From positions 30,001 to 62,000 of the forward strand of contig MWMI01000002.1 of NCBI GenBank assembly GCA_003568775.1: a stretch of 32,000 bases of DNA, given 5' to 3'. Shown one piece after another: positions 1,068 through 18,797 of the stretch. Position 1 is the first letter of the stretch, and each line of letters starts with the position of its first letter. Source of the DNA: Candidatus Nanoclepta minutus. Lineage in GTDB: Archaea > Nanobdellota > Nanobdellia > Nanobdellales > Nanobdellaceae. A program made the position numbers and the translations under genes. The notes under the pieces are model-generated. The model was not told the DNA's origin. It did no database searches and saw nothing but the letters and a program-made list of their open reading frames with translations.

Positions 1068-1088
1068 TTTTTAAATTTTTATTTTGGA

Positions 1089-1185: not shown

Positions 1186-1603
1186 ATTAAGAGATATTAT
1201 AAAGATTTAGCAATATGCTGTCTATTAAGATTGAGAAATATAAAATAAAAGAATATGAAATCGAATAAAAGACAACGGATAGAATTATTAAAAACGGTTA
1301 TGCTTTAACCAATTGATTTAGCTTTGATTGAACAATTGCTGGCATTACTATGGATACTAACAGAAATATTAGAAAATATATCAAACCTTTATCTTCTTCT
1401 CCAACTTTGAATTAATTGCTTCGTGTTCTAGAACAGCTTCTTTAAAGTTTTTCCAAGTATAATAAAAACATTCTGTTACTTTTCAAAAAACAACCAACTA
1501 ACCTTAATTTAGAAAAACTGCACTAGACTTTTAAAATACAGCAAAAATGTCTTTTCCTAGTTTATAATTATAATTTTAAAATTCAAATCTTAGATATTTT
1601 TAC

Positions 1604-2332: not shown

Positions 2333-2381
2333 AGATCTTAGAGATCTAAGTATAAGTTCTTTTCAAGAAATTTTACAGCTT

Positions 2382-2455
2382 CTTAACCTACATTATGATA
2401 CTTTGAAGTATATTGAAAGAGATAGGGTATAATTAATGGTTTTGATTAACAAAAT
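2382..2455. repeat. Intergenic repeat, copy B (pairs with 85-157)
   Basis: See copy A. About 80 percent identity by hand alignment. Lies about 145 nt upstream of ORF 2599. Confidence 0.6.
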
Positions 2456-2598
2456 TACAGTCTTTTATAAGAACCGTATAACTCCTAAAATCTATAACAT
2501 TTTCGTGAAAAACAGGATAAAAATGTCAAGATTTATTCGTAAAAGCGCTTAAAAAGGTTATCGAAGTCTTTATATTTTTTATTTAATATAATACACTT

Positions 2599-3366
2599 AT
2601 GCATTATCCGTCTTGGTTAAAAATAAAAGAGCCATATCAAAAAGAAAACAAATGGTATTGTCCTTATTGTAATTCGGAATTTGATAGCAAAGAAAAAGCC
2701 TATCCAAGATTGGTTATGACTTTTGATTCTTTCCAAAGATCTTATAAAGAACATCCAGATCTAAGGATTTTCTTAGATGAGCAATGGCATACAAAAGAAG
2801 GACATCCATGTACAGCTTTCTCATTCTATTTTTGGGAGGAATATGAAAAGTATAGAAAAATGGAGAACTTTCCTAAATTAGAAGATATAAAAGTTAAAGA
2901 GGTTAGAAAAAAAGATAAGAAGAAAGCTTCTGATAATGCTTTTAGTTTTTTATCATTAAGGGAACCTGAACCATCTAATAAGGTAAACGATACTCAAAAA
3001 ATTAATACAAAATCTAATAACGTATCTAGTAACTTACCTTCCTATAAAGCTAGTAGTAAACCACCAAGTAACATAACAAAGAATATAGATAATAAGACAA
3101 ATCAAGCAGGTATTTTTTCACTTAAAAAGCTGCTATACTCCTTGGAGGATAAAACAATAATAAAAGATAGCATTTTAATTTTAATAATCAACTTTATATT
3201 CTTTAATTTAAAGATATATCAGTTTTTTAGCCTTTCCTACATCTACGATATACCCAGGTTCTTTGACAGGATAATTTCCTTCTTTTTATTTTCAGTTCTT
3301 ATAGTAAGTCTATCTAAAGCTTTTTCAAGGATATTCTTGCTATACACTGATATGCGAACCCTCTAA
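2599..3366 (+). CDS. Zinc-ribbon-like N-terminus, low-complexity linker and C-terminal TM segments; hypothetical
   Basis: CPYC...H...HPC near the N-terminus. An S/N/K/P-rich linker follows, then hydrophobic stretches (ILILIINFIFF, ISFFLFSVLIVSL). May be the N-terminal part of the next gene (see findings). Confidence 0.5.
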   Translation: MHYPSWLKIKEPYQKENKWYCPYCNSEFDSKEKAYPRLVMTFDSFQRSYKEHPDLRIFLDEQWHTKEGHPCTAFSFYFWEEYEKYRKMENFPKLEDIKVKEVRKKDKKKASDNAFSFLSLREPEPSNKVNDTQKINTKSNNVSSNLPSYKASSKPPSNITKNIDNKTNQAGIFSLKKLLYSLEDKTIIKDSILILIINFIFFNLKIYQFFSLSYIYDIPRFFDRIISFFLFSVLIVSLSKAFSRIFLLYTDMRTL

Positions 3367-3424
3367 AGATTGGATTGAGAAATATTATAGGGCTTTCATA
3401 TTTGATTCCAATCAGAAAGATATA

Positions 3425-4219
3425 TTGTTGGATATAATAGGACGAATAAATAACTATACAACTGATCCAAACAAATTCGTAGATATAGCAGTAGCATTTG
3501 TTCAAAACATCCCCTACGACTATAATAAGTACTATTCAATAATTAGCGAAAACACGAGATTTCCTGTAGAAGTTTTAGTTGACAATAAAGGAGTTTGTAG
3601 TGAAAAGTCTTTACTTTTAGCAGGTATCTTAGCATATGCAGGATACGATGTTATCCTATTCGAGTTTGAAAAAGAAAATCATATGGCAGTTGGAATTAGA
3701 TGTCCTTGTAAAAATAGCTTTAGGGGTTCTGGATATTGCTTTATAGAGTCTACATTACCAAATCCAATTGGGTATGTACCAGAAGAGTATATGGGAGGTA
3801 TAAAGTTGGTAAGCATCCCAAAGGTGATAAAAGTCAGTTCAGGAAGCAGGATGTATACAAATTGTTTTTATATAGATAACGATCCAGCAACATATAAATA
3901 TGAAATAATACAGAAGTTTAGAGAATACTTAGATAGAAACTATAGATTAATTTATAAAGAGGACTTAACTAGAAGTATTAACAGTCTCTATCTACCTTAT
4001 GGGTATATTTCTGGAATAACTTGGAAATTACCAATAGAAAATGGGAATCCTGATATTATCGTGGCAAAGATAATAAAATGCTATATCGAGGATAAGTGTT
4101 ATCAAAATATAGTATCATATGGAAACCTAAGAGCTGATTTAACTATTTATAGATATTATGGAGTAGACATTATAAATGAAGGTGGTAAATACTATTTAGC
4201 TTTGTTGTTGGCTAAATAA
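3425..4219 (+). CDS. Transglutaminase-like cysteine protease-fold protein
   Basis: Putative Cys-His-acid core: KGVCSEKSLLLAGILAYAGYDV, NHMAVGI, CFIEST. TTG start in the track; the frame is open upstream to 3308 without an ATG. Confidence 0.65.
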   Translation: MLDIIGRINNYTTDPNKFVDIAVAFVQNIPYDYNKYYSIISENTRFPVEVLVDNKGVCSEKSLLLAGILAYAGYDVILFEFEKENHMAVGIRCPCKNSFRGSGYCFIESTLPNPIGYVPEEYMGGIKLVSIPKVIKVSSGSRMYTNCFYIDNDPATYKYEIIQKFREYLDRNYRLIYKEDLTRSINSLYLPYGYISGITWKLPIENGNPDIIVAKIIKCYIEDKCYQNIVSYGNLRADLTIYRYYGVDIINEGGKYYLALLLAK

Positions 4220-4226
4220 CTCAATT

Positions 4227-4832
4227 TTACCATATATCTACTTCAATGATACCTTTTAGCCAATAATCCCTATCAAATTTATCCCATTCTTTTAATACAT
4301 TCATTCTAACCAAATTACAAGTTGGATATAAAGGACTATTTGATGCATCTAATTCTATCCATTTATTATCTACCTTTACATCAACCCAAACATGTGTTCC
4401 TCCTATTTTCTTTTTATCTAATAAAATATAGAGTCCACCTATAAGTCTAACCTCAAAACCTAGTTCTTTTAAGTATTCTGAAAGGGTTCTATTTCTAATA
4501 CCGCATTGATTATCCCATTTAGGGTTATAGTATTCCCAAAAAGGTGATTTTCCTTTTTTATTTTCATTAGTTATCCTTGCATCTATAAAATCTTTTAAGA
4601 TATAAAATAAATCCTCATAAGTTTCTATTAAGTGTTTTACATTTTTTAATTCCTCCATTCTTATTTCAAAGTTTATTGGTTTTTGTAAAAGTTTTATTAT
4701 ACTTTTAGGAGTATCCCTAACATTTACCTTAAATAAATTTTCCTTTATTTTCTTAGTTTTTTGCCTATAATTGTTTGCTATCTCTAAGTTAACATACTTT
4801 TCTGGGATTTTTAATAAAAAAGCAGTTTTCAT
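4227..4832 (-). CDS. Transglutaminase-like cysteine protease-fold protein
   Basis: Cys-His-Asp core: NQCGIRNRTLSEYLKELGFEVRL, GGTHVWVDV, WIELDAS. Convergent with 3425-4219, 7 nt between their ends. Confidence 0.65.
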   Translation of the reverse strand: MKTAFLLKIPEKYVNLEIANNYRQKTKKIKENLFKVNVRDTPKSIIKLLQKPINFEIRMEELKNVKHLIETYEDLFYILKDFIDARITNENKKGKSPFWEYYNPKWDNQCGIRNRTLSEYLKELGFEVRLIGGLYILLDKKKIGGTHVWVDVKVDNKWIELDASNSPLYPTCNLVRMNVLKEWDKFDRDYWLKGIIEVDIW

Positions 4833-4885
4833 AAAATTTAGATTTTATGAAAAATATAAAAAGCTAAAAATTCTAGTAAGTATCA

Positions 4886-6154
4886 CTAAACCAATAACCA
4901 TTTCCACAAGGGGATAAACTTAATCTCTTTATTATCTATCCTCAAATTATCTTCATAATCCCAAGTAATTACAATTAATTCTGGGTTATTTTCCTTAAAC
5001 AATTCATGAGCTTTTAATAGAGATCTAATTTCTCTTCTTTCTATTTCATCTTTAGAGTTAGCATAAGTTACCTGAATCAGTTGTTTTATGTTTAAGCCTT
5101 CTTTTATAACGAAGTCTACTTCATATTTGTTGTTTTTTCTCAGGTAATAAAATTCTAAATTTATGTTTTTATAATACTTTTTTCTTAATAGCTCTAAAAA
5201 TACTACATTTTCCATATCCCTGGATATGTTTTTATTTCCAAATAACCCATATCCAACATCTATCAAATAAATCTTTCTTGGTGATACTATTCTCTTTTTT
5301 AAGGATGACGAATATTCCCTAACTAAGAATAATATCATTGCGTCTTCGAAATAAGAAATATAGCTTATTATCGTTCTTTTAGTAACTCTTATTCTCTGTT
5401 TGAACAATCTAAATAACGAATCATAAGATAAATATTTAGAATAATTATTTATTGCAAAGTATAATAGCTCGTTTATTAGATAAACGTTTCTTATTTTATA
5501 TCTTTCCAATATATCCCTTTTTATTAAAACTTCCAAATATTCTTTTAGTATTCTTTCCTTTTGTTCATTTAAAACTACCTCGGGATATCCTCCATACTTT
5601 AGATATTCCTCTAAAGAACCCCTTATTTTATTATAATTTTCATAAAAAGCCTTTCCTTCAAGCATTATAGACCTAAATCTTAAAAATTCCCTAAAGCTTA
5701 AGGGTAATAAATTGTATGTTATTGATCTTCCTCTCAAGTGTGTTGCAATCTCTGTAGACAAAAGTTTAGATGAAGATCCCGTTACATATACTTCTAACCC
5801 TTTATCTAATAAATATCTAACTATTCTTTCCCAATCTATTATGTTTTGAACTTCATCCAATAAAACTATTGGGTTTTTATCTGGATAAAGTTCTTTATAA
5901 GCATCTAATATATCGATTATGTCTTCTGGTTTAGAATTATAAAAAATGGGATTTTCAAAATCGATATATAAATAATCTTCTGGATTTTTTATTAAAGAAA
6001 ATAGAAAATATGTTTTTCCTATTCTTCTAGGTCCAATAATACATATAGCTCTATTCTTTATTTTTTCTATTTTTAATTCTCTTTGTTTTACATCTGAAAA
6101 GTTTCTATTATGGAATTCAACAATATATCTCTTAACTAAATCTTTCTTAATCAT
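4886..6154 (-). CDS. AAA+ ATPase of the COG1373 type (ATPase core plus DUF4143-like C-terminal domain)
   Basis: Walker A IIGPRRIGKT and Walker B VLLDEVQ. The C-terminal YEVDFVIK...IQV is reminiscent of a PD-(D/E)xK-like module. 422 aa, typical of this expanded archaeal family. Confidence 0.85.
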   Translation of the reverse strand: MIKKDLVKRYIVEFHNRNFSDVKQRELKIEKIKNRAICIIGPRRIGKTYFLFSLIKNPEDYLYIDFENPIFYNSKPEDIIDILDAYKELYPDKNPIVLLDEVQNIIDWERIVRYLLDKGLEVYVTGSSSKLLSTEIATHLRGRSITYNLLPLSFREFLRFRSIMLEGKAFYENYNKIRGSLEEYLKYGGYPEVVLNEQKERILKEYLEVLIKRDILERYKIRNVYLINELLYFAINNYSKYLSYDSLFRLFKQRIRVTKRTIISYISYFEDAMILFLVREYSSSLKKRIVSPRKIYLIDVGYGLFGNKNISRDMENVVFLELLRKKYYKNINLEFYYLRKNNKYEVDFVIKEGLNIKQLIQVTYANSKDEIERREIRSLLKAHELFKENNPELIVITWDYEDNLRIDNKEIKFIPLWKWLLV

Positions 6155-6215
6155 TATATATTATAGAGTACCAATTTTAATAATTTTTGGTATCATAAAG
6201 TATACTAAATTACAT

Positions 6216-6257
6216 CTATAACAATAACCATTTCCACAAAAGAACAAATTATATCTC
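6216..6257 (-). pseudogene. Short relic of the ATPase gene 3' terminus
   Basis: 33 of 42 nt identical to 4886-4927, including an exact 18-mer CAATAACCATTTCCACAA (4892-4909 = 6222-6239). Reads EI*FVLLWKWLLL* versus EIKFIPLWKWLLV*. Confidence 0.6.
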
Positions 6258-6322
6258 CTATGAACTTTCTATTAAAAAAACTAACTCTTTATATGAATAC
6301 ACCGGATTTCAAGGATGGTGGA

Positions 6323-6445
6323 TTATACTCTCTTTCGATCGACAGTATACCATTTATGTCCTATGATCTTTACAAAACCTAACTCTTCTAAACGATAAAG
6401 TAAATATATCACGACACCTCTATTAATTCCAGTCTTACTTACAAT
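6323..6445 (-). pseudogene. In-frame wHTH-coding continuation of ORF 6446-6709 beyond its TAG
   Basis: 40 codons directly downstream of the TAG (6446-6448), in the same frame, encode IVSKTGINRGVVIYLLYRLEELGFVKIIGHKWYTVDRKRV*. This is a typical recognition helix plus wing and has no start codon of its own. Confidence 0.6.
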
Positions 6446-6709
6446 CTATTCTAATGTTAGTTTACCATCATTTCTTAACGTTTCTAATAGAACCTTTACT
6501 TTCCCCTCATAAGTAGACTCCTCTTTGCCATAGATTCTAAGTAATTTCCATTTATCTTCATTACTTAACTTTGCTCTATATCTTAAAATACTATCCGGAT
6601 TCTCTGCAACTTCTAATATTGGCCTTATTATTTCATCATATACCCTTCTCCCTCTCTCAGTTATTCTAATAATCTTAGAAGAATGGGAAAGAACGTCCCT
6701 ATCCCTCAA
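6446..6709 (-). CDS. wHTH-protein fragment (TTG start; probably part of a disrupted larger gene)
   Basis: 87 aa ending ...LLETLRNDGKLTLE*. The TAG falls between helix 2 and the recognition helix of a winged-helix motif. The N-terminus (RDRDVLSHSSKIIRITERG) looks like the wing of the HTH that ends the upstream ORF. Confidence 0.5.
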   Translation of the reverse strand: MRDRDVLSHSSKIIRITERGRRVYDEIIRPILEVAENPDSILRYRAKLSNEDKWKLLRIYGKEESTYEGKVKVLLETLRNDGKLTLE

Positions 6710-6714
6710 CCAAT

Positions 6715-7608
6715 CTAGATATTATGTAGACTATGGCTATAGTAGCTAACATTAAGCAACCTTGAAAATTCCCTTACAGTCACTTCTCCCTCACTTTTAT
6801 TCTTTAGATATTCAAGAACTTTTTTTGCCATTCTATAGGGCATATACCTATAGACCCTAATAACCTCCTTTTTACATTCCGGATTCTCCAAACATTCTAA
6901 GGTATCTCTTATCTTCTCTTTATTTACTCTATATGCTTTAGGTATCTTATTTCGATTAAAAGGATTTTTATATTCTATTAGGCCCAACTTCTCAAATCTT
7001 TTTAAACAAGAGTTTAATGATCCGGAAGACATATATGTTGCTCTTGCTATTTTACCAACCGATACTTCCCCTCCCTCATAAATATATTTCAATATTTCAA
7101 TGGAGTTTATTGATGGTCTCTTTCCCTCTCGCCCTGAAATTTGCCCAAATAATTCCCAAGGATCTATATCCAATTCGGCACATTTCTTAAGAATATAAGA
7201 GACAAAAGGTTTCATATATTCGCCAAAAGGAGTCAGAGTATAACCATAACTTTCTGGGGTAATTTGGACTCTTTTAAGTAAGCCTATTCTTACCATAGGT
7301 CCCCCTCCCTTTGAGTTTAGAGATACATACCCCCAATAGGTTGAAGGATCGATAGGCATTGAACCTCTATAAAGTCTCTTGTTTCTCTGAAATTCTTTGT
7401 AAGATATTCCTAAACATCTTAAAAACTCGTCAAATAATTCTATTTCATTCGTATAAACTTTACCATAACTTAAACATGTATGTAAAATGGCTCTTGGAAT
7501 TAAATTAACCGACTTAGACAGAATTTCCAACCTACTTTTATAGGATTCCTTTTTAAAATCTTCTAGAATATAATCTTTCTCAAGGTTTAGAATATCGTCT
7601 AATCCCAT
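6715..7608 (-). CDS. Multi-winged-helix DNA-binding protein (N-terminal portion of a probably disrupted gene)
   Basis: wHTH-like segments IEILKYIYEGGEVSVGKIARATYMSSGSLNSCLKRFEKLGLIEY and VLEYLKNKSEGEVTVREFSRLLNVSYYSHSLHNI*. The second is cut off in its recognition helix. Confidence 0.6.
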   Translation of the reverse strand: MGLDDILNLEKDYILEDFKKESYKSRLEILSKSVNLIPRAILHTCLSYGKVYTNEIELFDEFLRCLGISYKEFQRNKRLYRGSMPIDPSTYWGYVSLNSKGGGPMVRIGLLKRVQITPESYGYTLTPFGEYMKPFVSYILKKCAELDIDPWELFGQISGREGKRPSINSIEILKYIYEGGEVSVGKIARATYMSSGSLNSCLKRFEKLGLIEYKNPFNRNKIPKAYRVNKEKIRDTLECLENPECKKEVIRVYRYMPYRMAKKVLEYLKNKSEGEVTVREFSRLLNVSYYSHSLHNI

Positions 7609-7644
7609 TAATATACAAATAAGGTTAAGGTTTTATTATCTTAA

Positions 7645-7740
7645 CTTAGTAACAATCACTTCTATAAAGGTATAAACTTTATCTCTTTATTATCTATCTT
7701 TAGATATCCTCATAGTCCCAAGCAATTATAGGTTATTTAT
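7645..7740 (-). pseudogene. Orphan relic of a COG1373-type ATPase gene 3' end
   Basis: Aligns to 4886-4980 and more closely to relic 1089-1185. Reads IIAWDYED, then a frameshift, then YLKIDNKEIKFIPL*K*LLL, with both Trp codons of the LWKW tail changed to stops. Confidence 0.65.
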
Positions 7741-7767
7741 GTTGTATATTGATGTTACCAATATAAT

Positions 7768-9018
7768 TCATCTTAGAAGACCATAACTTCTATATAGATT
7801 TTCTTTTTCCTCACTAAGCAAACCTAACCTTATACAACTCCTTGCAACTTCAGAAGAAATAGGCCTTGGCTTTGATCTCCCCATTAACCACCTTTTTATA
7901 GTATATAATTTTATACCTAGAGATTCTGCAATCTCAGAATAACTTTTCCCCATCATTCGAAGTTCTAACGCCTGGATATACTTATCATATCTCTCAAATT
8001 GTTTTTGTAAACGTGAATATATTGCTGGAATATAAGGAAGGAGCCTGTGAACATTCACCCTATAGTATCGCCCATTTTTTGTTAGCAACTTATAACATCT
8101 TAATATATTAAGCATAAATGAAACTTCAAATGACCTCCTGAATTTTAATTTTTGCATAATCTCGCCTACCGTATAGTATTCTTTACCAGATGGATCTAAA
8201 AATACTAAAAGTATTTGAGCTAGATGTAAATCTTTACCGATAAATTCTTCAGGATGTAATACCTTCAATTTTATTTTAGAGGGGAGATAAACGTCTACTT
8301 CTATTTCTCTCGCAATTTGAATAATATCTTCAAATAACCATAATTCTTCCCCATATACTACCCATTCCCTTTTAAATAATGGAATTCTTTTATGGGTTAT
8401 ATATTTCGAAAATTCCTCACTCTTTTTAAGAAGATATAAAGAAGGTATCCTTAAATTTTTAGAGATTTGCTCAAAGATCTTTATTTCCTCATTATTAAAA
8501 AATTCTTTAAAAGCTAGATCATTTAAAATTTCGTCTATATTAGAATAACCAAGTTTTCTGTACCATTCCTCAAAAGCAGCGGAAGGATGTCTATAGGGTT
8601 CTGTTAATTTCTTAAAAATCAACCAATAGTAATTATACATAGCTGCTTTTTCTTCATTTTTAAACAAAGTTTTAGTTTCGTTTTCTATCCAACCCTTTTC
8701 TTTCATGCTAGATAAAGCCGCACCTACTCTTCTATAAGGAGGATTATGACGATATCCATAAGGTAATAATATGCACCCTTCTGTAAGCAAACTAATAAGT
8801 GAAAATAAATCTATAAAGTATATACCATCTTTTCTTCTTTTTAATGCAGAATAAAGTATACCAGCTATATGTGTATTATAAATTTCTGCACTAACCTGAG
8901 GATTTTGGGGTTTTAATTCTATAAATCTAGTAGTGGGATAATTCACGAATCTTAAGATCTCATCTAATGAAGGTTCCTTTTTAATCTTATATTTACTTGT
9001 GTATTTAACTTTAAGCAT
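7768..9018 (-). CDS. Large hypothetical protein with an internal wHTH-like segment and a C-terminal HTH
   Basis: 416 aa. C-terminal GKSYSEIAESLGIKLYTIKRWL resembles resolvase/transposase/sigma-region-4 type HTHs. YYTVGEIMQKLKFRRSFEVSFMLNILRCYKLLTKNGRYYRV is wHTH-like. No catalytic motif recognised. Confidence 0.6.
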   Translation of the reverse strand: MLKVKYTSKYKIKKEPSLDEILRFVNYPTTRFIELKPQNPQVSAEIYNTHIAGILYSALKRRKDGIYFIDLFSLISLLTEGCILLPYGYRHNPPYRRVGAALSSMKEKGWIENETKTLFKNEEKAAMYNYYWLIFKKLTEPYRHPSAAFEEWYRKLGYSNIDEILNDLAFKEFFNNEEIKIFEQISKNLRIPSLYLLKKSEEFSKYITHKRIPLFKREWVVYGEELWLFEDIIQIAREIEVDVYLPSKIKLKVLHPEEFIGKDLHLAQILLVFLDPSGKEYYTVGEIMQKLKFRRSFEVSFMLNILRCYKLLTKNGRYYRVNVHRLLPYIPAIYSRLQKQFERYDKYIQALELRMMGKSYSEIAESLGIKLYTIKRWLMGRSKPRPISSEVARSCIRLGLLSEEKENLYRSYGLLR

Positions 9019-9253
9019 GGTTTCTTATATTTATCTAAAAAATATATTTTTTACTACTCGGTTAAAGATAAATATTTTAAAGTTTTATAATAACGTTTCT
9101 TAAACTACATATTAACATAAACTCGTTAAAAATACCCTATTATAAGGATAGAAATTGATAGAGGAATTAAAGAAGGTATCTAATGAATATAAGGAAGACT
9201 ATGGGAGGTTTGAGGAACTAAAGCTTTTAATAGAGAAGACGTATATTTGAAGA

Positions 9254-9385
9254 ATGGAAACCATAGGGATAAGTAAAGAAACACTCTATACAATTATAGT
9301 TATTTTGTTGATAATTGCTGCTACAGCAGTTTGTACGTATCTTATTGAAAATACTAATCCACCTAGCTGTAAGCCATGCTGCTAA
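9254..9385 (+). CDS. Candidate 43-aa single-TM peptide with a Cys-rich tail (below the ORF-track cutoff)
   Basis: ATG...TAA encodes METIGISKETLYTIIVILLIIAATAVCTYLIENTNPPSCKPCC. A 31-codon TTG ORF (9155-9250) lies in the same frame, separated by one TGA. Confidence 0.3.
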   Translation: METIGISKETLYTIIVILLIIAATAVCTYLIENTNPPSCKPCC

Positions 9386-9773
9386 TAACAGCTGGAGATA
9401 TCGTTTATAGTAAAAGTAAGTAGATTAAGCCAAGCGCATTAGTTATACAAAAAATTTGTGTTGCATTAAGAGTATTTATTCTAACAATAGAGTATTCTAT
9501 GATACTTAATTATTTGATCCGAAATTCCTAAGAAATCTCTTTATTTTTTCAATAATATAGGAATCCTTGTAGAGTAAGAGATTCTTAATAATGTAAAATT
9601 TTAATAAAAATTACTTCTCAAATCTTTATAAAATACTCATGCTAATAACTAAGATAATACCTTTAATTTAGCATCTTCAATTCTTCAAAATACAATTAAA
9701 TTCATTATGTTTTTGGTTATAAAAATTTTTAAAGATTAATTTACTATTAATTAGTATAACATAGCGACAATTT

Positions 9774-10907
9774 TTGATGGAGGCGGAAGACTTATTTAAG
9801 TTATTTAAGTTAGCTGAAGAAGAGAAAATGGCAGTGTTATTGATTGGAAAGTATGGCACAGGAAAGAGTAGTGTTGTTTACGAGTATGGCAAAAAGAGAG
9901 CAAAAGAGTTAGAGGGGGAATTAGCAATATGGCATGAACTAAGCGAGGAAGAAAAGGAGAAAGTTATTAAAAATGCAGGAAAGTATTATGTTATTGTAGA
10001 TATAAAAGGCCCTATGATTAGTCCAGAGAACTTAATAATGCCACTCCTAGTAGATGAAGAGTTAATATGGGAAACACCGTTATGGGTTAAAGTGTTTAAT
10101 AAGGAAGAATCAGCAGGAATATTATTAATTGATAATATAGACATGGCCCCAAGTGGGCTACAGAGTACTTTATCCGAATTAATATTACAAAGGAAAATAG
10201 CTGAGGATAGTTTAGAATCAAAAAATTTATTAGTAGCAGCAGTAGGAAACGACTCAGGAAGTAATGAGTATGCAAACGAGATACCAAAACAATTATTAAA
10301 CCGTTTCATTGTTGTAAACACAGATAATATTTTATTAAATGTTGATTACTGGGTTAAATGGGCTTTACAAAATGATATAGATAAAAGAGTTATTGATTAC
10401 GTATTATACAAAAATAACCTATTTACAATGGCCAGGGAACCATTAGGACAATCAACAACCCCAAGAACACTACACATATTATCAGACATGATAAAAAATG
10501 AAAACAATATGGAATATATAGAACTTGTTAGTAAAGCATCGTTAGAAGAGCATGATGCTTTAGAATTTACAGAATTCATAAAATTATACGAAAAACTCAA
10601 AGATTTAGAGAAATATGTAAAAAATACAGAGCTATTAAACGAATTAAACGAACAAGAATTATTTATTGTTTCTATGAAAATTACAGATATGTATTTAAAC
10701 AATAAAGTAGATGTAGATAAATACTTTAACTTTATTGAGAGCGTAGCAAAGAAGAGAAGAGAATACAGCTTAACAATGTATAAATACATTAAAGATATTG
10801 TAAAGAACTCTGAAAAAACAAATATGTTAATAGAGAAGATATTACAGCATAAAGATAGTGAAATGCACAAGCTATTCAATGAGCTTCTTACTTTTTCAAA
10901 GCTATAA
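9774..10907 (+). CDS. MoxR-like AAA+ ATPase with a helical C-terminal domain
   Basis: Walker A LLIGKYGTGKSS. The Walker B region ILLIDNIDMAPSGLQSTLSELILQRKI parallels MoxR hhhDEINRAxxxxQxxLLxxMxE. NRFIVV parallels the DRF motif. ATG at 9777 is the more likely start. Matched in-frame by a CRISPR spacer (see findings). Confidence 0.75.
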   Translation: MMEAEDLFKLFKLAEEEKMAVLLIGKYGTGKSSVVYEYGKKRAKELEGELAIWHELSEEEKEKVIKNAGKYYVIVDIKGPMISPENLIMPLLVDEELIWETPLWVKVFNKEESAGILLIDNIDMAPSGLQSTLSELILQRKIAEDSLESKNLLVAAVGNDSGSNEYANEIPKQLLNRFIVVNTDNILLNVDYWVKWALQNDIDKRVIDYVLYKNNLFTMAREPLGQSTTPRTLHILSDMIKNENNMEYIELVSKASLEEHDALEFTEFIKLYEKLKDLEKYVKNTELLNELNEQELFIVSMKITDMYLNNKVDVDKYFNFIESVAKKRREYSLTMYKYIKDIVKNSEKTNMLIEKILQHKDSEMHKLFNELLTFSKL

Positions 10908-10909
10908 AA

Positions 10910-10937
10910 TTTTATTTTTTTAAAATTTTTAATTTTT
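10910..10937 (+). terminator. Oligo-T tracts downstream of the ATPase gene (archaeal-type terminator candidate)
   Basis: TTTTATTTTTTT followed by AAAATTTTTAATTTTT directly after the TAA at 10905-10907. Confidence 0.3.
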
Positions 10938-10942
10938 GACGG

Positions 10943-13900
10943 CTTTCAATATTTCTAATTCTTCTGAAACATGTATCTCCAGCAACTGCATTAAGGTATA
11001 TAAGAAAATTCTTTCAATATTTCTAATTCTTCTGAAACACTCAGCAGTGATAAATGAAAATCTGCAAATCTAACTTTTCCTTTCAATATTTCTAATTCTT
11101 CTGAAACGTCTTTTATACCACATATAACGATTTTGATTATGAAAGTTTCAAAACTTTCAATATTTCTAATTCTTCTGAAACCTATAGTATATAGCTCCTG
11201 TATATTCTCTACCTAAATTCTTTCAATATTTCTAATTCTTCTGAAACAAAAGCAATATCCAAATGCAACGATACATTACCCAATCAGCTTTCAATATTTC
11301 TAATTCTTCTGAAACTTAATCTAGCCCAAAGCATCTTATTTAACAACCAAATTAACTTTCAATATTTCTAATTCTTCTGAAACAAACATTAGAGACAAAC
11401 CAGTATAACATAAGATTCTTACACTTTCAATATTTCTAATTCTTCTGAAACCTAACAGAACTATAGCTACAACGCTCGCCAATACTATCAACTTTCAATA
11501 TTTCTAATTCTTCTGAAACTTAGGATATTTAGTAATTCTTTAGCTTTTTGTTCTGCATTCTTTCAATATTTCTAATTCTTCTGAAACCTCATTAAGGCAC
11601 ACTATTTAGATATAATCCTAACAATATCTCTCAATATTTCTAATTCTTCTGAAACGTTTTAGTAGAAAGAGCAGATCCTCCAGAGGGGAAGTTATTACTT
11701 AACTTTCAATATTTCTAATTCTTCTGAAACTCTTAGATATTAACTCTTCTACTTGTCCATTATCTAACAACTTTCAATATTTCTAATTCTTCTGAAACGA
11801 ATAATGTTTTTTGTGTTTTCTTTTTGCATATATGCATTACTTTCAATATTTCTAATTCTTCTGAAACCTGAAAGAAAAGCTTTTGAGTCTGTTAGAAAGT
11901 TTTATGATGATGTGCTTTCAATATTTCTAATTCTTCTGAAACTAGCATGGGAGAGGTTGAATATAACCTGCTCGTAAGAATTCTTTCAATATTTCTAATT
12001 CTTCTGAAACAACTCTTTATATTCTACCTTTACTATTTCAGTTCTTATTTTCTTTCAATATTTCTAATTCTTCTGAAACGCAAACCATAGAAAATCCGAG
12101 ATAATCTTCTTTTTCATCATTCTTTCAATATTTCTAATTCTTCTGAAACATTAGATTATCAGTGAGCAAGGTTATTAGCGATTTGTTTTATAGCTTTCAA
12201 TATTTCTAATTCTTCTGAAACACTTAAACAAAGTGGATATAATACGACTATTGTATGAACTACTTTCAATATTTCTAATTCTTCTGAAACGAAAAGATAA
12301 TAATAAAAAACGATTTACCAGAATTTATAACTTTCAATATTTCTAATTCTTCTGAAACTGTTTACGAGTATGGAAAAAGAAGGGCTATGGAATTAGGGCT
12401 TTCAATATTTCTAATTCTTCTGAAACGCTCATGAGATGGCTTTAGTTGAGGCTCACATAAGAAAAGTCTTTCAATATTTCTAATTCTTCTGAAACACCTT
12501 CTCAAACCCAGCCGTCTCAACCTTCACAGCCTCCACACTTTCAATATTTCTAATTCTTCTGAAACATTCGGTTGGATATCCTCTAAGCTTATATTATGTT
12601 GAAAATCTTTCAATATTTCTAATTCTTCTGAAACTTAAATGAGAGGTTTGAAATAACAATAGATACAAGATACAACAAAATAGAAACTTTCAATATTTCT
12701 AATTCTTCTGAAACTTATTAAGATATACAGAGTTTATTATACTTTGCCTAACGGCCAACAAGACTTTCAATATTTCTAATTCTTCTGAAACTGGGCCAAA
12801 CTTGCATTTAGGCTAACATTTGCCTTAATATCAACTTTCAATATTTCTAATTCTTCTGAAACCTTTAGCAGGTTCTGAAAAAGCTTTAACTCCAGCCATT
12901 AGCTTTCAATATTTCTAATTCTTCTGAAACCTTTTATGGCATCAATTATAGTTTTAGATGTCTTATAGAACTTTCAATATTTCTAATTCTTCTGAAACAG
13001 GTTAGGTATAATAGATGAACAAACCTTAAGGACATATTTATCTCTTTCAATATTTCTAATTCTTCTGAAACCTTATATTGGTTCTGGTGGTTCTCTCTCT
13101 GTTTCAAATGGACTTTCAATATTTCTAATTCTTCTGAAACCATGTAGATATAGCAGACGCAGAATATATAACATTCTCTACTTTCAATATTTCTAATTCT
13201 TCTGAAACGAAGAGGAATTAAGAAAAGTTTTAGCATACGAAGTGTATAAGCTTTCAATATTTCTAATTCTTCTGAAACATGCTTCAATAAAAACATTATA
13301 AAACATGTATGCATATATTTCTTTCAATATTTCTAATTCTTCTGAAACGAATGGGATAGGTATCTATTAGGGAAGTTTTTTGCACTTTCAATATTTCTAA
13401 TTCTTCTGAAACCATTATAATAGATTCTCTTTTCCCTAAAGCTTGATGCCACTTTCAATATTTCTAATTCTTCTGAAACGGTTGTGGGTATGCCTATAAC
13501 TAAAGAGGACTTAAAAGAAACTTTCAATATTTCTAATTCTTCTGAAACTTAATGAAGTTTATAACTTATTAAGTGATATTAGAGAAGTTAACTTTCAATA
13601 TTTCTAATTCTTCTGAAACGTAGAAATCATAATTATCTATCACCATATTACCGTATTCCCTTTCAATATTTCTAATTCTTCTGAAACAATGATGTTCGGG
13701 CTCTTTACTTGATAAGAGTGTCTACCTTTCAATATTTCTAATTCTTCTGAAACACAACAGCAGACATTAACAGAATTGGAAAGACAGCATCTACTTTCAA
13801 TATTTCTAATTCTTCTGAAACCACATGTAGAATATCATTTTATTTGAATTTTGTTTCATGACTTTCAATATTTCTAATTCTTCTGAAACGCTCAAGTCTT

Positions 13901-13955
13901 ACCGTCTCCGCCATGTTTCTAATTTGGCTTTCAATATTTCTAATTCTTCTGAAAC
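10943..13955 (-). CRISPR. CRISPR array: 44 repeats of 28 nt and 43 spacers of 36-52 nt
   Basis: The plus-strand repeat is CTTTCAATATTTCTAATTCTTCTGAAAC, which is GTTTCAGAAGAATTAGAAATATTGAAAG on the minus strand. All repeat starts were located by hand and 44x28 plus the spacer sum equals 3013 nt. There is one variant repeat (11628-11655, T to C at 11630). The strand is inferred from the ATTGAAAG 3' end and the cas2-proximal leader. Confidence 0.97.
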
Positions 13956-14243
13956 CTTAGTCTAATCGCATCTTTTATGACCTATATTATTCAAAACAAG
14001 CTTAAAAACTTTATAAAGTTCTGAATGCAGATAGAAAACAAAGGTTATATAAACCCCTGCAGATATTTAAAAATATTTTCTATAAACTTCTTATGACCTG
14101 ATACTTTTAGTTATATTCGTTAAAAGCCTAAATCTAGCCTTAAATTTCTTATAACACAACAGAATCCTATTATATAAATATAAAAATGTATAGATAACTG
14201 ATCTATCCGAAACAATCTATACATCTTAGTAGCTATTTTGCAA
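13956..14243 (-). promoter_or_regulatory. Putative CRISPR leader with candidate TATA boxes
   Basis: A 288-nt AT-rich non-coding stretch between cas2 and the repeat at 13928-13955. TATA-like TTTATAAA at 14010-14017 and TTTATATAA (minus strand, 14045-14053). Motif TTATGACCT occurs twice (13975-13983 and 14091-14099). Confidence 0.55.
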
Positions 14244-14507
14244 TTAGTATATATCGAATTCTTTCTTGACACCAATCTCTATTCTATCCTTCAAATATCC
14301 CTGACCTGGCAGAACATAAATAATAATAGAATCCTCATCTTTATTTATCATCTTCTCAAGCATCTTTTTTATATAATACAGAGTACTTTCTCTTATCTCT
14401 CCTTCAAAAACAGAGTTCTGGACATGATTTAAATACTTTTTCAAAAACTCTCTAACCTCATTTTGTCTTTCAATGGAAATATCATAGACTATTATCGCAT
14501 AAACCAT
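14244..14507 (-). CDS. cas2: CRISPR-associated endoribonuclease Cas2
   Basis: 87 aa. The N-terminal MVYAIIVYDIS is the beta1 strand with the conserved Asp. Ferredoxin-like length and pattern. Adjacent to the leader and to cas1. Confidence 0.9.
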   Translation of the reverse strand: MVYAIIVYDISIERQNEVREFLKKYLNHVQNSVFEGEIRESTLYYIKKMLEKMINKDEDSIIIYVLPGQGYLKDRIEIGVKKEFDIY

Positions 14508-14553
14508 TCTTGTCTAATTATTTAAAAGGTATTAAAGTTAAAATTGTAGGAAT

Positions 14554-15564
14554 ATGAAAAACATCTATATTTTATCGATCGGAAAAGTATATAGAAAGAG
14601 TAATAATCTCTACTTTATTGATAAGGATAAGAACAAAAGAGTTATACCAATAGAAGGTATAAATGCTATATACATAATGAATAAGGTTAGCTTAACATCA
14701 AATGCTATTCAAATGATACTAAATAAAGGAGTTCCTGTTCATTTCTTTAAAGAAGATTCAAAAATAGGTACATTTTATTATTTAGGATCTCTTTTACCTA
14801 AACAGAAGAAACCTTCTGGAAAAGTTCATATAGAGCAAGTTAAGGCTTATATAAACGTTGAAAAGAGGTCCGAGATAGCTTTAGAGATAGTAGACGCAAT
14901 AAGGTATAACATGATAAAAGTTATTGAAAAGTATAGAGAAGTTTACGATTATACAAAAACCTTAAGGAATCTGGATGTTAGGAAAGAATTTGAACAAAAA
15001 ATGACGGATTGGAAGGATGCAACGAACGTTATAAGGGGTATAGAATCAAATATCTGGGTTATATTTTATGAAGCTTTGGATAAGATATTGAAGACTTATA
15101 AGTTAGAGAGGAGGACTAGAAGACCTCCTAAAAACGAAGCAAATACTATCTTATCCTTCTCAAATGCTTTGTTATATGCTACTGTACTAAATGAGATATA
15201 TAAAACGCATTTGGATCCCACGGTTGGGTTTTTACATGAACCTTATGAAAAGGGAAGGTTTTCCCTAGTTTTAGATTTAGCAGAACCCTTTAAACCTATT
15301 ATAAGCTGTAGAATACTAATTTGGTTAATAAATCAAGGGATAGTAAAGCCAGAATACTTTAAGAAGGATCTGATGGGTGTTATGTTAAATGAAAACGGAA
15401 AAAGAGTTGTAATAAAGGAATTTGAAAGTAGGATAAGAGAAACCATAAAGATAAAAGGAAAGGGTAGGAAATCTATGCTGATTTTTATAAGAAAACAGGC
15501 TTATAATTTGGAAAAGGCTTTGGTAGAGGATACAAAATTTAAGGCTTTTAGATTAGTGTATTAG
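14554..15564 (+). CDS. cas1: CRISPR-associated integrase Cas1
   Basis: 336 aa. GIESNIWVIFYEAL and VGFLHEPYEKGRFSLVLDLAEPFKP match the conserved Cas1 Glu/His/Asp region. Divergent from cas2 across 46 nt. Confidence 0.9.
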   Translation: MKNIYILSIGKVYRKSNNLYFIDKDKNKRVIPIEGINAIYIMNKVSLTSNAIQMILNKGVPVHFFKEDSKIGTFYYLGSLLPKQKKPSGKVHIEQVKAYINVEKRSEIALEIVDAIRYNMIKVIEKYREVYDYTKTLRNLDVRKEFEQKMTDWKDATNVIRGIESNIWVIFYEALDKILKTYKLERRTRRPPKNEANTILSFSNALLYATVLNEIYKTHLDPTVGFLHEPYEKGRFSLVLDLAEPFKPIISCRILIWLINQGIVKPEYFKKDLMGVMLNENGKRVVIKEFESRIRETIKIKGKGRKSMLIFIRKQAYNLEKALVEDTKFKAFRLVY

Positions 15565-15588
15565 TCTTATCCTATGAAGGTTCTAAGT

Positions 15589-16245
15589 TTATAGGAGAAT
15601 AATCTCCTTACTATTTATCTTAAGAACCTTTACTTCTTCTTTAAATTTTAAAATACCTTTAGCCACTATAAACCTTTCTAAAGCATTTTCTACTATTATA
15701 TCCGCTCTACTGTTATAAATGTCTATCAGATCAGATGGAACTAACTGATAATTTGGTATATTTATTTCATTTTTCTCTTCAATAGTACCTTCTTTGGATT
15801 CCAATTTCCAACTGTAAGCTAGATAATCATTTTGACCAGCAAAGGGATAGTAATTTATAGGATTTGGGTCAATTTCTAAATTAACTTCTTTTGGAACTAG
15901 ATAAAATATATATTTCGAATTAACTATTAGTTCTGTATTTGATGGAGGTCGTTCAAAACCTTTGCTTTTAATCTGGATTATTCGCTGTATCTCTATAGTT
16001 TTCTCGAAAGTTAATAATTCGGATCCTACTAGGAAGTTCTTTAATATATTTTCTTCTTCTTTTGATTTGTTTCTTTTTTTGATTTTCCAAAAAGAAATTG
16101 GTTCTTTAAAAAAAGCGTTAAAAATTGAAAATATAGCTTTTTTTCTTGGAATTAAGAAAGTTTTTCTAGTCTTAACTGTATATGGGATCTTAAAAAATGC
16201 CAGGGGAAATTCTATTTCTAAAATATATGCCCTTTCTTTATTCAT
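15589..16245 (-). CDS. cas5: Cas5 (type I Cascade subunit)
   Basis: 218 aa. The N-terminus AYILEIEFPLAFFKIPYTVKTRKTFLIPRKKAIFSIFNAFF is typical of the Cas5 RAMP N-terminus. Overlaps the cas7 stop by 8 nt. Confidence 0.8.
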   Translation of the reverse strand: MNKERAYILEIEFPLAFFKIPYTVKTRKTFLIPRKKAIFSIFNAFFKEPISFWKIKKRNKSKEEENILKNFLVGSELLTFEKTIEIQRIIQIKSKGFERPPSNTELIVNSKYIFYLVPKEVNLEIDPNPINYYPFAGQNDYLAYSWKLESKEGTIEEKNEINIPNYQLVPSDLIDIYNSRADIIVENALERFIVAKGILKFKEEVKVLKINSKEIILL

Positions 16246-17410
16246 AGAATTTTAAATAATAGTTAAAGTTATTTAAGTCTAAATTTTTTAGTATATCTTC
16301 TACTAAGTTTTTTATTTCTGACGGTTTTTTGACAATTATTTTATCTCTATTATCAACCTTTAGATTTCCTACATAATCTATAACATATAGCTTCTCTTCT
16401 CCTTCTAACATATTGGCAAATTCTCTTAATTTCTCTATATCTAGTTGATAACCCTCGCTGAATCTTTCTACAACTTTTTCTATGATTTTTCCGTCTTTTT
16501 CTTCCTTAAAGATTTCATATTCTCTGTCTTTTTGATATTTTATGTTAACAAATGCTGATAAAGGTTTGATAGAATTTGTTAAAGCAACTACAACATATTT
16601 ATAATTTCCTTGATTTAATTGATCGGTAGATCTAGGTAGGACGAATTTTCCTGCTAATATTATTTCTAATAGAGCTCTTAATCTTTTCTTTCTTTCTTCC
16701 TCTTTTAGTATAACCATTTTTTCGTTGCTTCTATTTTGATCTACTTTGTCAGAATTTTTAACTTCCCCCAATATGTTTTTTAAATTTCTATCTTCATCTT
16801 CTTTATCCACGACTTCTTCTTTGTGAAATACTCCGATATAATTGTATATAATTCCATAAAATCTTCCTAAGAATTTTGCCTGTTCTATCTCAAAAGGTAT
16901 AGGATTTTCCCTTTTTGGAAATCTACCAGCAAATTCCGTTGTTACTGGTATAGGAAAGAAGCTTATTAAATAGGACATTTCTACAGGTGCTTTTCTTTTC
17001 CATGCACCACCCTTTTCTCCTTGACTTTTAGCTTTAGTAACCATATAACCGAATAGATCTTGATCTATATAATCTAAGAAGTTTCCACTATCTCCCTCTT
17101 GTTTTTTACCTATTTGCGTATCGCTAAGCGTTTCGAAGGGGTCTGTTTTAAATCCATAATCTCTTTCTAGAGCCAATCTTATCCCTTTTTTTATGGCTCT
17201 AGAGCTTACATACGGATAAATACCCTCTCTAGTTACAAACTTTTTAATAGTTATCCTTGTACCTACAGATTCGTCTGCATTTACGTTTCCCTCTACCTCA
17301 GTTACCACAACAAATTGTATAAATCTAGGATTTTTAACCTCTACCGATTCTTTATATTCTTGATTCATCATTTTGGTTCTCTTGGACTTTCTTTTTAGCC
17401 TTCGGAACAT
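16238..17410 (-). CDS. cas7: Cas7 (Csa2/DevR-like Cascade backbone subunit)
   Basis: VVTEVEGNVNADESVGTRITIKK...YPYVSSRAIKKGIRLALE is typical of the archaeal Cas7/Csa2 N-terminus. The start may be the internal ATG at 17371 or 17368, which reduces the overlap with cas8. Confidence 0.85.
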   Translation of the reverse strand: MFRRLKRKSKRTKMMNQEYKESVEVKNPRFIQFVVVTEVEGNVNADESVGTRITIKKFVTREGIYPYVSSRAIKKGIRLALERDYGFKTDPFETLSDTQIGKKQEGDSGNFLDYIDQDLFGYMVTKAKSQGEKGGAWKRKAPVEMSYLISFFPIPVTTEFAGRFPKRENPIPFEIEQAKFLGRFYGIIYNYIGVFHKEEVVDKEDEDRNLKNILGEVKNSDKVDQNRSNEKMVILKEEERKKRLRALLEIILAGKFVLPRSTDQLNQGNYKYVVVALTNSIKPLSAFVNIKYQKDREYEIFKEEKDGKIIEKVVERFSEGYQLDIEKLREFANMLEGEEKLYVIDYVGNLKVDNRDKIIVKKPSEIKNLVEDILKNLDLNNFNYYLKFYE

Positions 17411-18713
17411 GTGATAGCAAACCCAAGATAATTGAGGCTTTAATTAAATAAAATTTTGATAGATCGGAAGTTCTTAAATCATATATTAACTTACCAAATT
17501 TTTCAGATAAATCTTCTGATATATCTAAACCCCTAGACTTTAACCATACGATGTCCTTTTCGAACGTTTCCGCAAAGTATTCTGGTAAATCTTCGTTTCT
17601 TAAATCTTTTGCAAATCTATCTACTAATTTTTCAGTATCCGAAGGATCTTGAAATAATTCATAGATTTTAGAACCTAATAGTTGTCCTAAATTAAAATAC
17701 TCATCTAACTGATAATTTGTCATTTCTTTCATAAATTTAATTATGAAATACTTATTTAAAAACTTAATTGTTTTTCCAATTTGTTGAGAGCTTATTTCTA
17801 CCAATATTTTTACCAGATTATTTATAAAATTACTGTCTAATACTTGCTTAGCTAAAAGATAATAAGAGAATATATCTGCTATTTTTTCTACTGCTTTTTG
17901 TTGATTATATTTTTTTAAGATATTATGTAGTCTAATAAGAAGTTCTAAAATATAATAAAGATTTGTATTTTTTGGATTTATTTTACCCTCTCCTAGTAGC
18001 TCATAGATCTTCAAAAAGCCAGCTTCTGGTATAACAAATAAAGAACCTTCCATTTTTTGTTTTTTCCATACTATAACCTCACTAGTTCTTTTTATTTTAT
18101 ACTTTAGATCGTACAGTACTATAAAAATATTTATTAAAAAGATTAAAGTATTCCAATAGTCTCTATTTTTAAAAAACTTAAGCGTTGAGAGCTTTTTAAT
18201 AGTATCTGAAGGATATAGATTGTCGAATAAGTCATATATGTTTATATCTCCTTGTTGCAAGTATAAGTTGGGAACATAAAATACATATAAACCTCTATTT
18301 ATTAATACAGGAAATCCTTTTTCTAAAATATCCATCATCTCTTTTTTAGACTTATCTAAATCATAAATCTCATGCTCTATTTCATATGGATTTCTATTAA
18401 GGAATTTATCTTGGGTAATTATAGATGGTACTATATAGCTATCGAATTTATTTGATGAAAATTTATCAAAAATGGCTATTTTAAAAACCTCATCTAATTC
18501 CATCTGAGATAAAATTGATAAATGCTCTTCTTTTATTAACGGATATTTATTCTTATCTAGCGGAATATTAATATTAGGGTTTTTTCTTTTAATTATTTCT
18601 CCAATTTTCATTCTAACATCTCCTTTAACATTATGTATATTGCCCAACCAGTTTACAATATACTCCTTGTAGGCAGTATGCTTCGTAGACTTTCCAAAAT
18701 ATATATGACCCAT
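17352..18713 (-). CDS. cas8: Putative Cas8 large subunit (family not assignable)
   Basis: 453 aa, first gene of the cas8-cas7-cas5 unit. Called by position and size only. No motif recognised. Confidence 0.6.
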   Translation of the reverse strand: MGHIYFGKSTKHTAYKEYIVNWLGNIHNVKGDVRMKIGEIIKRKNPNINIPLDKNKYPLIKEEHLSILSQMELDEVFKIAIFDKFSSNKFDSYIVPSIITQDKFLNRNPYEIEHEIYDLDKSKKEMMDILEKGFPVLINRGLYVFYVPNLYLQQGDINIYDLFDNLYPSDTIKKLSTLKFFKNRDYWNTLIFLINIFIVLYDLKYKIKRTSEVIVWKKQKMEGSLFVIPEAGFLKIYELLGEGKINPKNTNLYYILELLIRLHNILKKYNQQKAVEKIADIFSYYLLAKQVLDSNFINNLVKILVEISSQQIGKTIKFLNKYFIIKFMKEMTNYQLDEYFNLGQLLGSKIYELFQDPSDTEKLVDRFAKDLRNEDLPEYFAETFEKDIVWLKSRGLDISEDLSEKFGKLIYDLRTSDLSKFYLIKASIILGLLSHVPKAKKKVQENQNDESRI

Positions 18714-18797
18714 ATTAATAAAGCATGTGTTGAAAATATTTTTAAGTTAATGATATTTAAAAATATTAAATAAATTAAATATTATCTTAAAGATATT

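Follow-up and report, generated by a model that had tools for sequence, protein, structure and literature searches.

The stretch of DNA analysed in this work (the window) comprises 32,000 nucleotides of the genome of Candidatus Nanoclepta minutus (contig MWMI01000002.1, positions 30,001 to 62,000; G000:C3:30001-62000 in the numbering used here). The genome assembly (G000) consists of 575,637 bp in 9 contigs, is 88% complete and has a GC content of approximately 28%; the genomes of its family relatives measure 0.4-0.8 Mb, and the DNA of the window is also present in hot-spring metagenome runs. A complete type I CRISPR-Cas locus lies inside the window, and the trailer end of its array abuts a gene coding for a MoxR-class AAA+ ATPase (P0001). 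In a preliminary description made from the sequence alone, two origins were considered for this gene: a remnant of an integrated element and an uncharacterised accessory ATPase of the CRISPR system. The results described below speak for the first of these. On balance, the gene is probably a young relic that was stranded from a mobile element or virus of nanoarchaea belonging to the same family, and not a CRISPR accessory gene.

The ATPase gene and its junction with the CRISPR array

The ATPase gene extends on the + strand from a TTG at position 9774 or an ATG at 9777 to position 10907, as indicated by the open reading frame (ORF; 377 or 376 codons, no internal stops) and by a database record of the protein, which has the ATG start and 376 amino acids. 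The ATG is the more likely start. Three parts can be distinguished in the protein: an AAA+ alpha/beta core (residues ~1-183), a lid (residues ~184-245) and a family-specific helical domain (residues ~246-377). The Walker A motif (P-loop) GKYGTGKS occupies residues 25-32 (9846-9869, + strand), and its residues G25, G28, G30 and K31 do not vary among 60 family members. Likewise kept, and invariant in the family, are Asn159 of sensor 1 (10248-10250, +), the arginine finger Arg177 (NRF; 10302-10304, +), which lies just N-terminal to strand 5, and Arg231 of sensor 2 (QSTTPR; 10464-10466, +), located in the lid. The Walker B motif is degenerate (GILLIDNID, residues 115-123; 10116-10142, +), the pair D120-N121 standing in the place of the canonical Asp-Glu. 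Neither frameshift nor internal stop nor truncation was found, and the N- and C-termini of P0001 align end to end with those of its homologues P0003-P0005.

The stop codon (10907) is separated from the terminal repeat, which begins at 10943, by a junction of 35 nt (10908-10942). This distance and the gene-poor gap of about 750 bp upstream of the gene were correctly given in the preliminary description; the gap (9019-9773, 755 bp) contains only ORFs of up to 43 amino acids. Two of these small ORFs, of 31 and 43 amino acids, lie at 9155-9385 (+) and may be real small genes. The longer one encodes a predicted membrane peptide with a hydrophobic core and a C-terminal CKPCC, and no Rfam match was obtained in the gap.

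On the + strand the stop codon is followed by runs of T7, T5 and T5, and a further T5 stands just before it; judged from the sequence, the runs in 10908-10942 are likely to serve as an oligo-T terminator of the archaeal type for the ATPase gene. The minus strand of the 35-nt gap is A-rich. The earlier statement that no T-tract terminator is visible on that strand is therefore correct for the gap, but it does not extend into the gene, where a T6 at 10813-10818 (-) is the first oligo-T that a read-through transcript of the array would meet, ~125 nt past the last repeat and ~95 nt inside the 3' end of the gene. The overlap of such an antisense transcript with the ATPase gene would probably be limited to the final ~95 nt. 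A search for a hidden degenerate repeat in the 3' end of the gene or in the 35-nt gap gave a best candidate of 16/20 in the gap. It was rejected as AT-rich chance similarity, this score being reached by 2.8% of random windows; the candidate would also abut the true repeat without an intervening spacer.

The sequence of this region was reproduced independently. An independent assembly of the source run covered 8500-10622 at depth 70 with zero differences or variant reads, a 379-nt contig of the same assembly (10593-10971) ran across the gene's end and reached the first repeat, and a 206-nt contig from a second study was identical to the window across the Walker B motif. Neither the Walker B motif nor the gene-array junction is a sequencing or assembly artefact.

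Family, catalytic centre and partner gene

The assignment of P0001 to the MoxR class rests on PHROG, fold and profile evidence, because the Pfam match alone was below threshold (AAA_5, 21.8 bits with a cut-off of 22; the same family was matched by 33 of 60 relatives at E <=0.001). The PHROG family phrog_1297 ('ATPase') matched residues 3-356 of P0001 on profile positions 10-345 of 356 (E=2.6e-34). An AlphaFold2 model built on ten homologues (mean pLDDT 83.8) showed the AAA+ alpha/beta core, the lid and a well-ordered extra helical domain (~246-377, pLDDT above 90). In the predicted model a beta-hairpin (E89-93/E96-100), representing the helix-2 insert, lies ahead of the Walker B strand (E114-120), and R177 is located directly before strand E178-182. 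The MoxR clade has been defined by an arginine finger N-terminal to core strand 5, a sensor-1 Asn and a sensor-2 Arg (PMC7159879). P0001 possesses all three, together with a Walker A of the form GxxGxGKS/T and the helix-2 insert, but lacks the catalytic Glu of the Walker B motif hhhhDE (DExN in the clade).

The ORF, the motifs, the PHROG match and the fold all agree with the preliminary description of a MoxR-like AAA+ ATPase with GKYGTGKS and an Asn at the Glu position, and the modelled hairpin bears out its MoxR-style helix-2 region. The same description had seen in the C-terminal half ~180 residues of K/E-rich sequence without a recognisable domain; this has to be revised, as the segment consists of the AAA lid and the confidently modelled helical domain (~190 residues), the latter common to the whole phage-type family. 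The K+E content of the C-terminal part is 24%, the same as that of the whole protein.

In the PDB fold search the best matches were NorQ, NorQD and CbbQ2, and NorQ is the closest characterised relative of P0001 by fold. Among viral models (BFVD), stronger and full-length matches with E ~1e-14 were obtained with gp566 of phage G and with proteins of PBS1 and RaK2, and the closest ESM Atlas clusters, which are 53-100% viral, matched with TM scores of 0.74-0.82 over the whole chain. When the PDB was searched by sequence, a 10-sequence profile found nothing meaningful; with a 60-sequence profile, the DEiN of the family aligned with DE(V/L/M)N in the AAA modules of midasin, and Clp/NtrC AAA+ domains were reached as well. 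A library of 1.84 billion representative proteins contained 289 family members at E <=1e-30. There are ten close relatives in all, every one from metagenomes or metagenome-assembled genomes; the closest, P0003, is 82% identical to P0001 and is encoded on a 16.8-kb contig (16,781 nt, JGI). Scans of the IMG/VR viral contigs with the P0001 protein and with the alignment revealed no relatives, and a scan of genome contigs yielded only distant bacterial ones (25-30% identity). NCBIfam gave nothing relevant for P0001. Taken together, the family is typical of viruses or mobile elements, and P0001 is a new, degenerate member of a known phage/mobile-element MoxR family. The possibility left open in the preliminary description, that the homologues are ordinary chromosomal MoxR genes, does not agree with this result.

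The degeneration of the Walker B motif is peculiar to P0001. In an alignment of ten sequences, seven of the eight homologues that covered the motif read IDEINM, LDEINM or LDEKNM, the remaining one (P0004) read IDDINM with a D-D pair, and IDNIDM was seen in P0001 only. Among 166 motif-covering domains of the family, position 121 is Glu in 162 and Asn in P0001 only, which disposes of the idea that D-N might be a lineage-wide neutral variant; the other exceptions were a single Asp and a single Gln, the latter in the degenerate half of a long protein. Position 123 is Asn in 145 of the same 166 domains and Asp only in P0001. P0001 alone also departs from the family at three columns that are otherwise invariant (F118L, K148E and P173Q), and thus three changes of the catalytic centre (F118L, E121N, N123D) fall within six residues.

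Alleles with the canonical motif exist in the same type of habitat. A second hot-spring study contained contig alleles ~80% identical to the gene and reading IDEINMT, and low-depth allele contigs, 12-20% diverged, corresponded to window positions 10296-10622 in run X1, which is the source sample, and to 9948-10439 in run X2. The depth of the diverged allele in the source sample was 5.3, as compared with 70 for the resident sequence.

The E109Q replacement in NorQ has been reported to leave ~2% of the ATPase activity and to stabilise the hexamers (PMC9976466). Judged from its residues, P0001 is very probably unable to hydrolyse ATP. Because Walker A, the sensors and the arginine finger are kept, the Glu is lost and NorQ E109Q provides an analogy, the protein probably binds ATP and oligomerises but would hydrolyse the nucleotide poorly or not at all.

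Homologous loci were available from metagenomes (L002-L009) and from two genomes of the same family as G000, namely G012 (L022-L025) and G013 (L026). In all six loci with readable downstream DNA (L002, L003, L005, L006, L022, L023) a DUF2201 partner gene lies directly downstream of the ATPase gene, either overlapping it or 3 nt away. The partner protein has 442-450 amino acids, an N-terminal metallopeptidase-like domain (DUF2201_N) and a C-terminal DUF2201/VWA domain, and belongs to the family phrog_1314. No partner gene stands beside P0001, where the array begins 35 nt after the stop codon, and a tblastn comparison of all ORFs of the homologous loci with the whole G000 assembly recovered the ATPase gene alone. 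The absence of a usual MoxR partner, stated in the preliminary description, is thus true of the P0001 locus but not of the family, which has a conserved vWA partner.

Homologues of the gene have paralogue arrays, vWA genes and small AAA genes as neighbours. In loci of the nanoarchaeal type, two to five tandem paralogous ORFs (~270-290 amino acids, 30-60% mutual identity) lie upstream of the ATPase-vWA pair (L022:1034-5415, L023:744-3773, L004:208-1943, L026:177-3132 and L003:3-623). They matched no Pfam or PHROG family and are candidates for clients of the chaperone pair or for structural proteins of an element. Further genes lie near the module in G012: in L022 (G012:C6), positions 7931-19790 encode a small MCM-P-loop-like AAA protein of 243 residues, which shares 82% identity with one in L003, a thermopsin-family protease of 661 residues, and two MCM proteins, one full (710 residues, 36% identical to the MCM of G000) and one truncated (285 residues). 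The extra MCM copies suggest an integrated element. The G012 module, present in two or more full copies besides fragments, gives the impression of an element that is integrated or multi-copy, although neither an integrase nor a tRNA was found at its borders. On the 21-kb contig of L006/L009 (Ga0180302_10000281), glutamine amidotransferase-like and amidoligase-like genes occur near the MoxR-vWA pair. The same contig carries an inverted duplication, 86-3914 (-) being mirrored at 4041-7869 (+), which is probably a hairpin assembly artefact; both orientations appear among the homologous loci.

The matching spacer, the CRISPR locus and the left flank

The ATPase family is represented among the spacers of the adjacent array, as the preliminary description had proposed. 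The spacer at 12359-12398 (+) derives from a close homologue of the P0001 gene, translates as VYEYGKRRAMELG and resembles the gene segment 9875-9914 (+) at 31 of 40 positions, with GGG next to the segment on the + strand. At >=72% identity it is the sole spacer to match the G000 genome, and for the others no match was obtained in the metagenome loci L002-L009 either; a blastn-short run with the spacers produced noise only. The differences between spacer and gene are mostly at third codon positions. The spacer translation, VYEYGKRRAMELG, is nearer to P0003 (VYEYGKRRAKELG, …GKRRAKELG) than to the resident protein (VYEYGKKRAKELE, …GKKRAKELE), and therefore the spacer was acquired from a related allele and not from the resident copy. 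Two of the mismatches are at the handle-proximal end of the spacer, and it is because of the mismatches, including these two, that the resident gene is tolerated. Since a diverged low-depth allele is present in the source sample (see above), the element family evidently occurs in the habitat of the organism.

The array (10943-13955, -) consists of 44 repeats of 28 nt and 43 spacers and is the sole CRISPR array of the G000 assembly. The spacers vary widely in length (36-52 nt). Since the minus-strand reading of the repeat ends in ATTGAAAG, the non-coding flank on the cas2 side is the leader side and the trailer abuts the ATPase gene. CRISPR arrays usually end in a degenerate repeat. The terminal (trailer) repeat beside the ATPase gene is identical to the consensus, and the sole variant repeat (CTCTC… at 11628) is internal to the array. 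From this perfect terminal repeat it may be supposed that the array lost its original trailer end on being joined to the gene.

The cas genes lie beyond the leader: cas2 (14244-14507, -), cas1 (14554-15564, +), a Cas7/Csa2-like gene (16238-17410, -), cas3 with HD and helicase domains (18798-21224), cas4 (21224-21745) and cas6 (21781-22668). The CRISPR repeat of G000 was not found in five related genomes. In the same-genus genomes G001 and G002 (77-82% complete) no homologue was detectable either of Cas1 (14554-15564) or of the 416-residue helix-turn-helix protein encoded to the left of the ATPase gene (7768-9018), and the CRISPR island as a whole may be peculiar to the strain or the species. 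A search for this left neighbour among contigs of the length of the one encoding P0003 gave no homologue, which is weak evidence. Rfam and tRNA scans of the window gave no match, and scans for sigma-70-type promoters and hairpin terminators, signals that are irrelevant for an archaeon, did not rise above the level of shuffled sequence.

The distribution of the ATPase gene is sporadic. It was detected in three of 21 genomes of the order, namely G000, G012 (two full copies and two fragments) and G013, and was not found in two genomes of the same genus. The CRISPR repeat of G000 was absent from all ten homologous loci inspected for it (L002-L008, L022, L023, L026), and P0001 matched none of the PADLOC families.

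The left flank of the gene contains several broken sequences. A 55-nt segment occurs there in four copies with 64-80% identity (1093-1147, 4893-4947, 6223-6277 and 7651-7705). It corresponds to the 3' end of an intact AAA_14/DUF4143 ATPase gene (4886-6154, -), and three of the copies are detached intergenic relics. These copies point to repeated recombination or to decay of paralogues in the left flank. A MarR/winged helix-turn-helix gene (6715-7608, -) continues in two open frames with similarity to winged helix-turn-helix sequences (6446-6721 and 6323-6445), and the whole region (6323-7608) is apparently a single gene broken by a frameshift and a stop.

Origin of the gene and comparison with known systems

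P0001 fails in two features that define a working member of its family, the catalytic Glu and the vWA partner. That the gene is a stranded relic is indicated by the virus-typical character of its family, its sporadic distribution, a partner missing only in the P0001 locus and a spacer directed against a close allele; the proposal of a remnant made in the preliminary description is supported by the same four observations. The threefold hit in the catalytic centre, the loss of the partner and a left flank full of relics point in the same direction.

In the element, the ATPase would be one half of a two-gene chaperone module, the other half being the translationally coupled protein with DUF2201 metallopeptidase-like and vWA domains. 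By analogy with NorQ/NorD, CbbQ/CbbO and p618/p892 of the Acidianus two-tailed virus (ATV), the vWA protein would hold the client and the hexameric MoxR ring would remodel it. The clients may be the tandem ~280-residue paralogues encoded just upstream in the nanoarchaeal loci. In the host genome the ATPase gene alone would have remained, joined within 35 nt to the trailer of the array, and the original degenerate terminal repeat may have been lost at the joining, by deletion or by recombination between array and element. Deprived of the vWA adaptor, the resident copy would have no route to a client. Most likely P0001 is functionless as a chaperone and heading for decay. On this view the unbroken frame means that constraint on the gene ceased only a short time ago. 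With a spacer from a close allele in the neighbouring array, the host's CRISPR system can be seen to be targeting this element family at present.

Random substitutions in the P0001 ORF were simulated at the base composition of the window. About 8% of such substitutions would create a stop, and the probability that no stop had arisen was 0.18 after 20, 0.07 after 30 and 0.03 after 40 neutral substitutions. The intact frame therefore implies either a recent stranding (fewer than ~30 neutral substitutions) or ongoing selection. On the branches leading to P0001 and P0003, 21 and 11 substitutions were counted, respectively, those of P0001 being the more radical, a trend that fits a relic.

Several observations weigh against a relic. 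The frame of P0001 has remained intact over 376 codons despite the odds of acquiring a stop, all functional residues other than those of the Walker B centre are retained, the C-terminal domain is as conserved as in P0003, and the relative-rate excess of P0001 over P0003 falls short of significance (chi2 = 3.1). The window was also found to lack any integrase, att site or tRNA that could mark the border of an element. A partner gene could also lie on unassembled DNA of G000, the assembly being 88% complete. Finally, a word-based search found no homologue of the vWA partner on a contig of the same size (16.8 kb) as that of P0003, and the whole P0001/P0003 subclade might therefore work without a partner; this is weak evidence, as a diverged partner could escape such a search.

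The intact frame could also be explained if P0001 had been exapted as a poison subunit. In such a case the ATP-binding, hydrolysis-dead copy would co-assemble with the 70-80% identical subunits of the invader and stall the hexamer, in the manner of mixed AAA+ rings that contain Walker B Glu mutants, so blocking maturation of the element and complementing the spacer. The pattern of changes would fit such a role: neutral drift would break the ORF quickly, yet it is open, and the changes cluster at the catalytic centre and spare Walker A, sensor 1, the arginine finger, sensor 2 and the C-terminal domain. In NorQ, the E109Q variant assembles into stable hexamers that have ~2% activity, alleles reading DEINMT circulate in the source sample and in another hot-spring sample, and the gene is located in a defence island. 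However, this is a single instance without a second genome carrying such a copy, the surroundings are full of broken genes, the rate excess is not significant and the co-assembly of subunits is only supposed; moreover, a young relic explains the intact frame equally well. Exaptation as a poison subunit is thus conceivable but unlikely, and it is similarly doubtful that a hydrolysis-dead copy of a ring ATPase was domesticated as a protein-level decoy immunity next to a spacer against the same gene. If true, a fossil gene acting in a dominant-negative manner would constitute a defence of a new kind.

It appears rather improbable that P0001 is a still-active solo ATPase, an ordinary working accessory chaperone, from a partner-free P0001/P0003 subclade, in which Asp123 or another acidic residue would act as catalytic base. 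The ORF is intact, the D-D pair of P0004 indicates some tolerance at the motif within the subclade, and the absence of a detected vWA homologue on a contig of the size of P0003's would be in accord with such a role. On the other hand, that search may miss a diverged partner and a partner is present in all six readable loci; Glu is found in 162 of 166 family domains, Asn is unable to serve as a general base, and even the conservative replacement of the Glu by Gln in the closest characterised relative removes ~98% of the activity.

A dedicated accessory ATPase of the type I system or its array, acting for example in adaptation or in handling of CRISPR RNA, is highly improbable. Gene and array are indeed separated by just 35 nt and are transcribed towards each other, but the gene stands at the trailer end, away from the cas operon, and the array carries a spacer against the very same family. 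None of the marks of a CRISPR-associated gene (recurrent linkage, a defence or cas profile) was found for P0001. The second origin proposed in the preliminary description thus finds no support, in view of the lack of the repeat in any of the ten homologous loci, the PADLOC result, the virus-typical family and same-genus genomes without the gene. Assemblies of metagenomes or co-cultures often break or are mis-joined at CRISPR arrays, but an artefactual D-N motif or junction has a negligible chance in view of the depth-70 assembly (8500-10622) without differences, the 379-nt contig bridging 10593-10971 and the 206-nt contig of the second study, identical across the motif.

If the gene is a stranded relic, its annotation should be neither that of a working MoxR chaperone nor that of a cas-associated gene, but that of a partnerless, probably catalytically dead copy from a mobile element. 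The locus further offers an entry point to the very little known mobile elements of Nanopusillaceae-type nanoarchaea, characterised by the MoxR + DUF2201 module and the tandem ~280-residue paralogues upstream of it. The element, a target of the host's type I CRISPR system, was seen in at least three genomes and in several metagenomes from hot springs and elsewhere. As a whole, the case belongs to the ordinary biology of CRISPR islands; what is unusual in its anatomy is a single detail, the exact junction of the gene with a perfect terminal repeat. An element gene joined in this way would be a rare visible trace of recombination or deletion at the trailer end of an array.

Among known systems, the phage ATPases of phrog_1297 (Bacillus phage G gp566, the PBS1/AR9 ATPase and the PA5oct ATPase) have the same three-part architecture as P0001, including the C-terminal helical domain, and correspond to it over the full length both in profile and in fold (BFVD E ~1e-14; Atlas TM 0.74-0.82). 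The order of the ATPase gene followed by the DUF2201 gene is common to the phage phrog_1297 + phrog_1314 pairs and the nanoarchaeal homologues; no functional test of the phage module was found in the literature. P0001 differs from the phage ATPases in the lack of the DUF2201 partner, in having DNID in place of DEIN, and in its position in a cellular genome beside a CRISPR array.

The best matches among solved structures belong to the NorQ/NorD and CbbQ/CbbO systems, which form the CGN subfamily of MoxR AAA+ proteins (9qh7, 9qh4 and 6l1q; Foldseek E 1e-6 to 3e-5, TM by target 0.56-0.62). NorQ and CbbQ share with P0001 the single AAA+ module with a helix-2 insert and the arginine finger before strand 5, and with its family the vWA partner. 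In contrast to them, P0001 has an extra C-terminal helical domain of ~130 residues, lacks the catalytic Glu, shows only ~15% sequence identity and has no metalloenzyme or Rubisco as client; in place of the N-domains of NorD and CbbO, the partner of the P0001 family has a metallopeptidase-like domain. In ATV, the MoxR ATPase p618 and the vWA protein p892 have been proposed to be tail-development chaperones that remodel virion proteins (PMC9964418, PMC7159879). They are a precedent for a MoxR + vWA module in a virus of hyperthermophilic archaea; the comparison is one of description, the domain sizes differ, and P0001 is an orphan residing in the host. In the Walker B Glu-to-Gln 'trap' variants such as NorQ E109Q, as in P0001, the catalytic carboxylate is lost and the nucleotide-binding residues are kept. 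Whereas the trap variants were engineered, the change in P0001 is a natural one, and it combines the replacement of Glu by Asn with that of Asn by Asp two residues further on.

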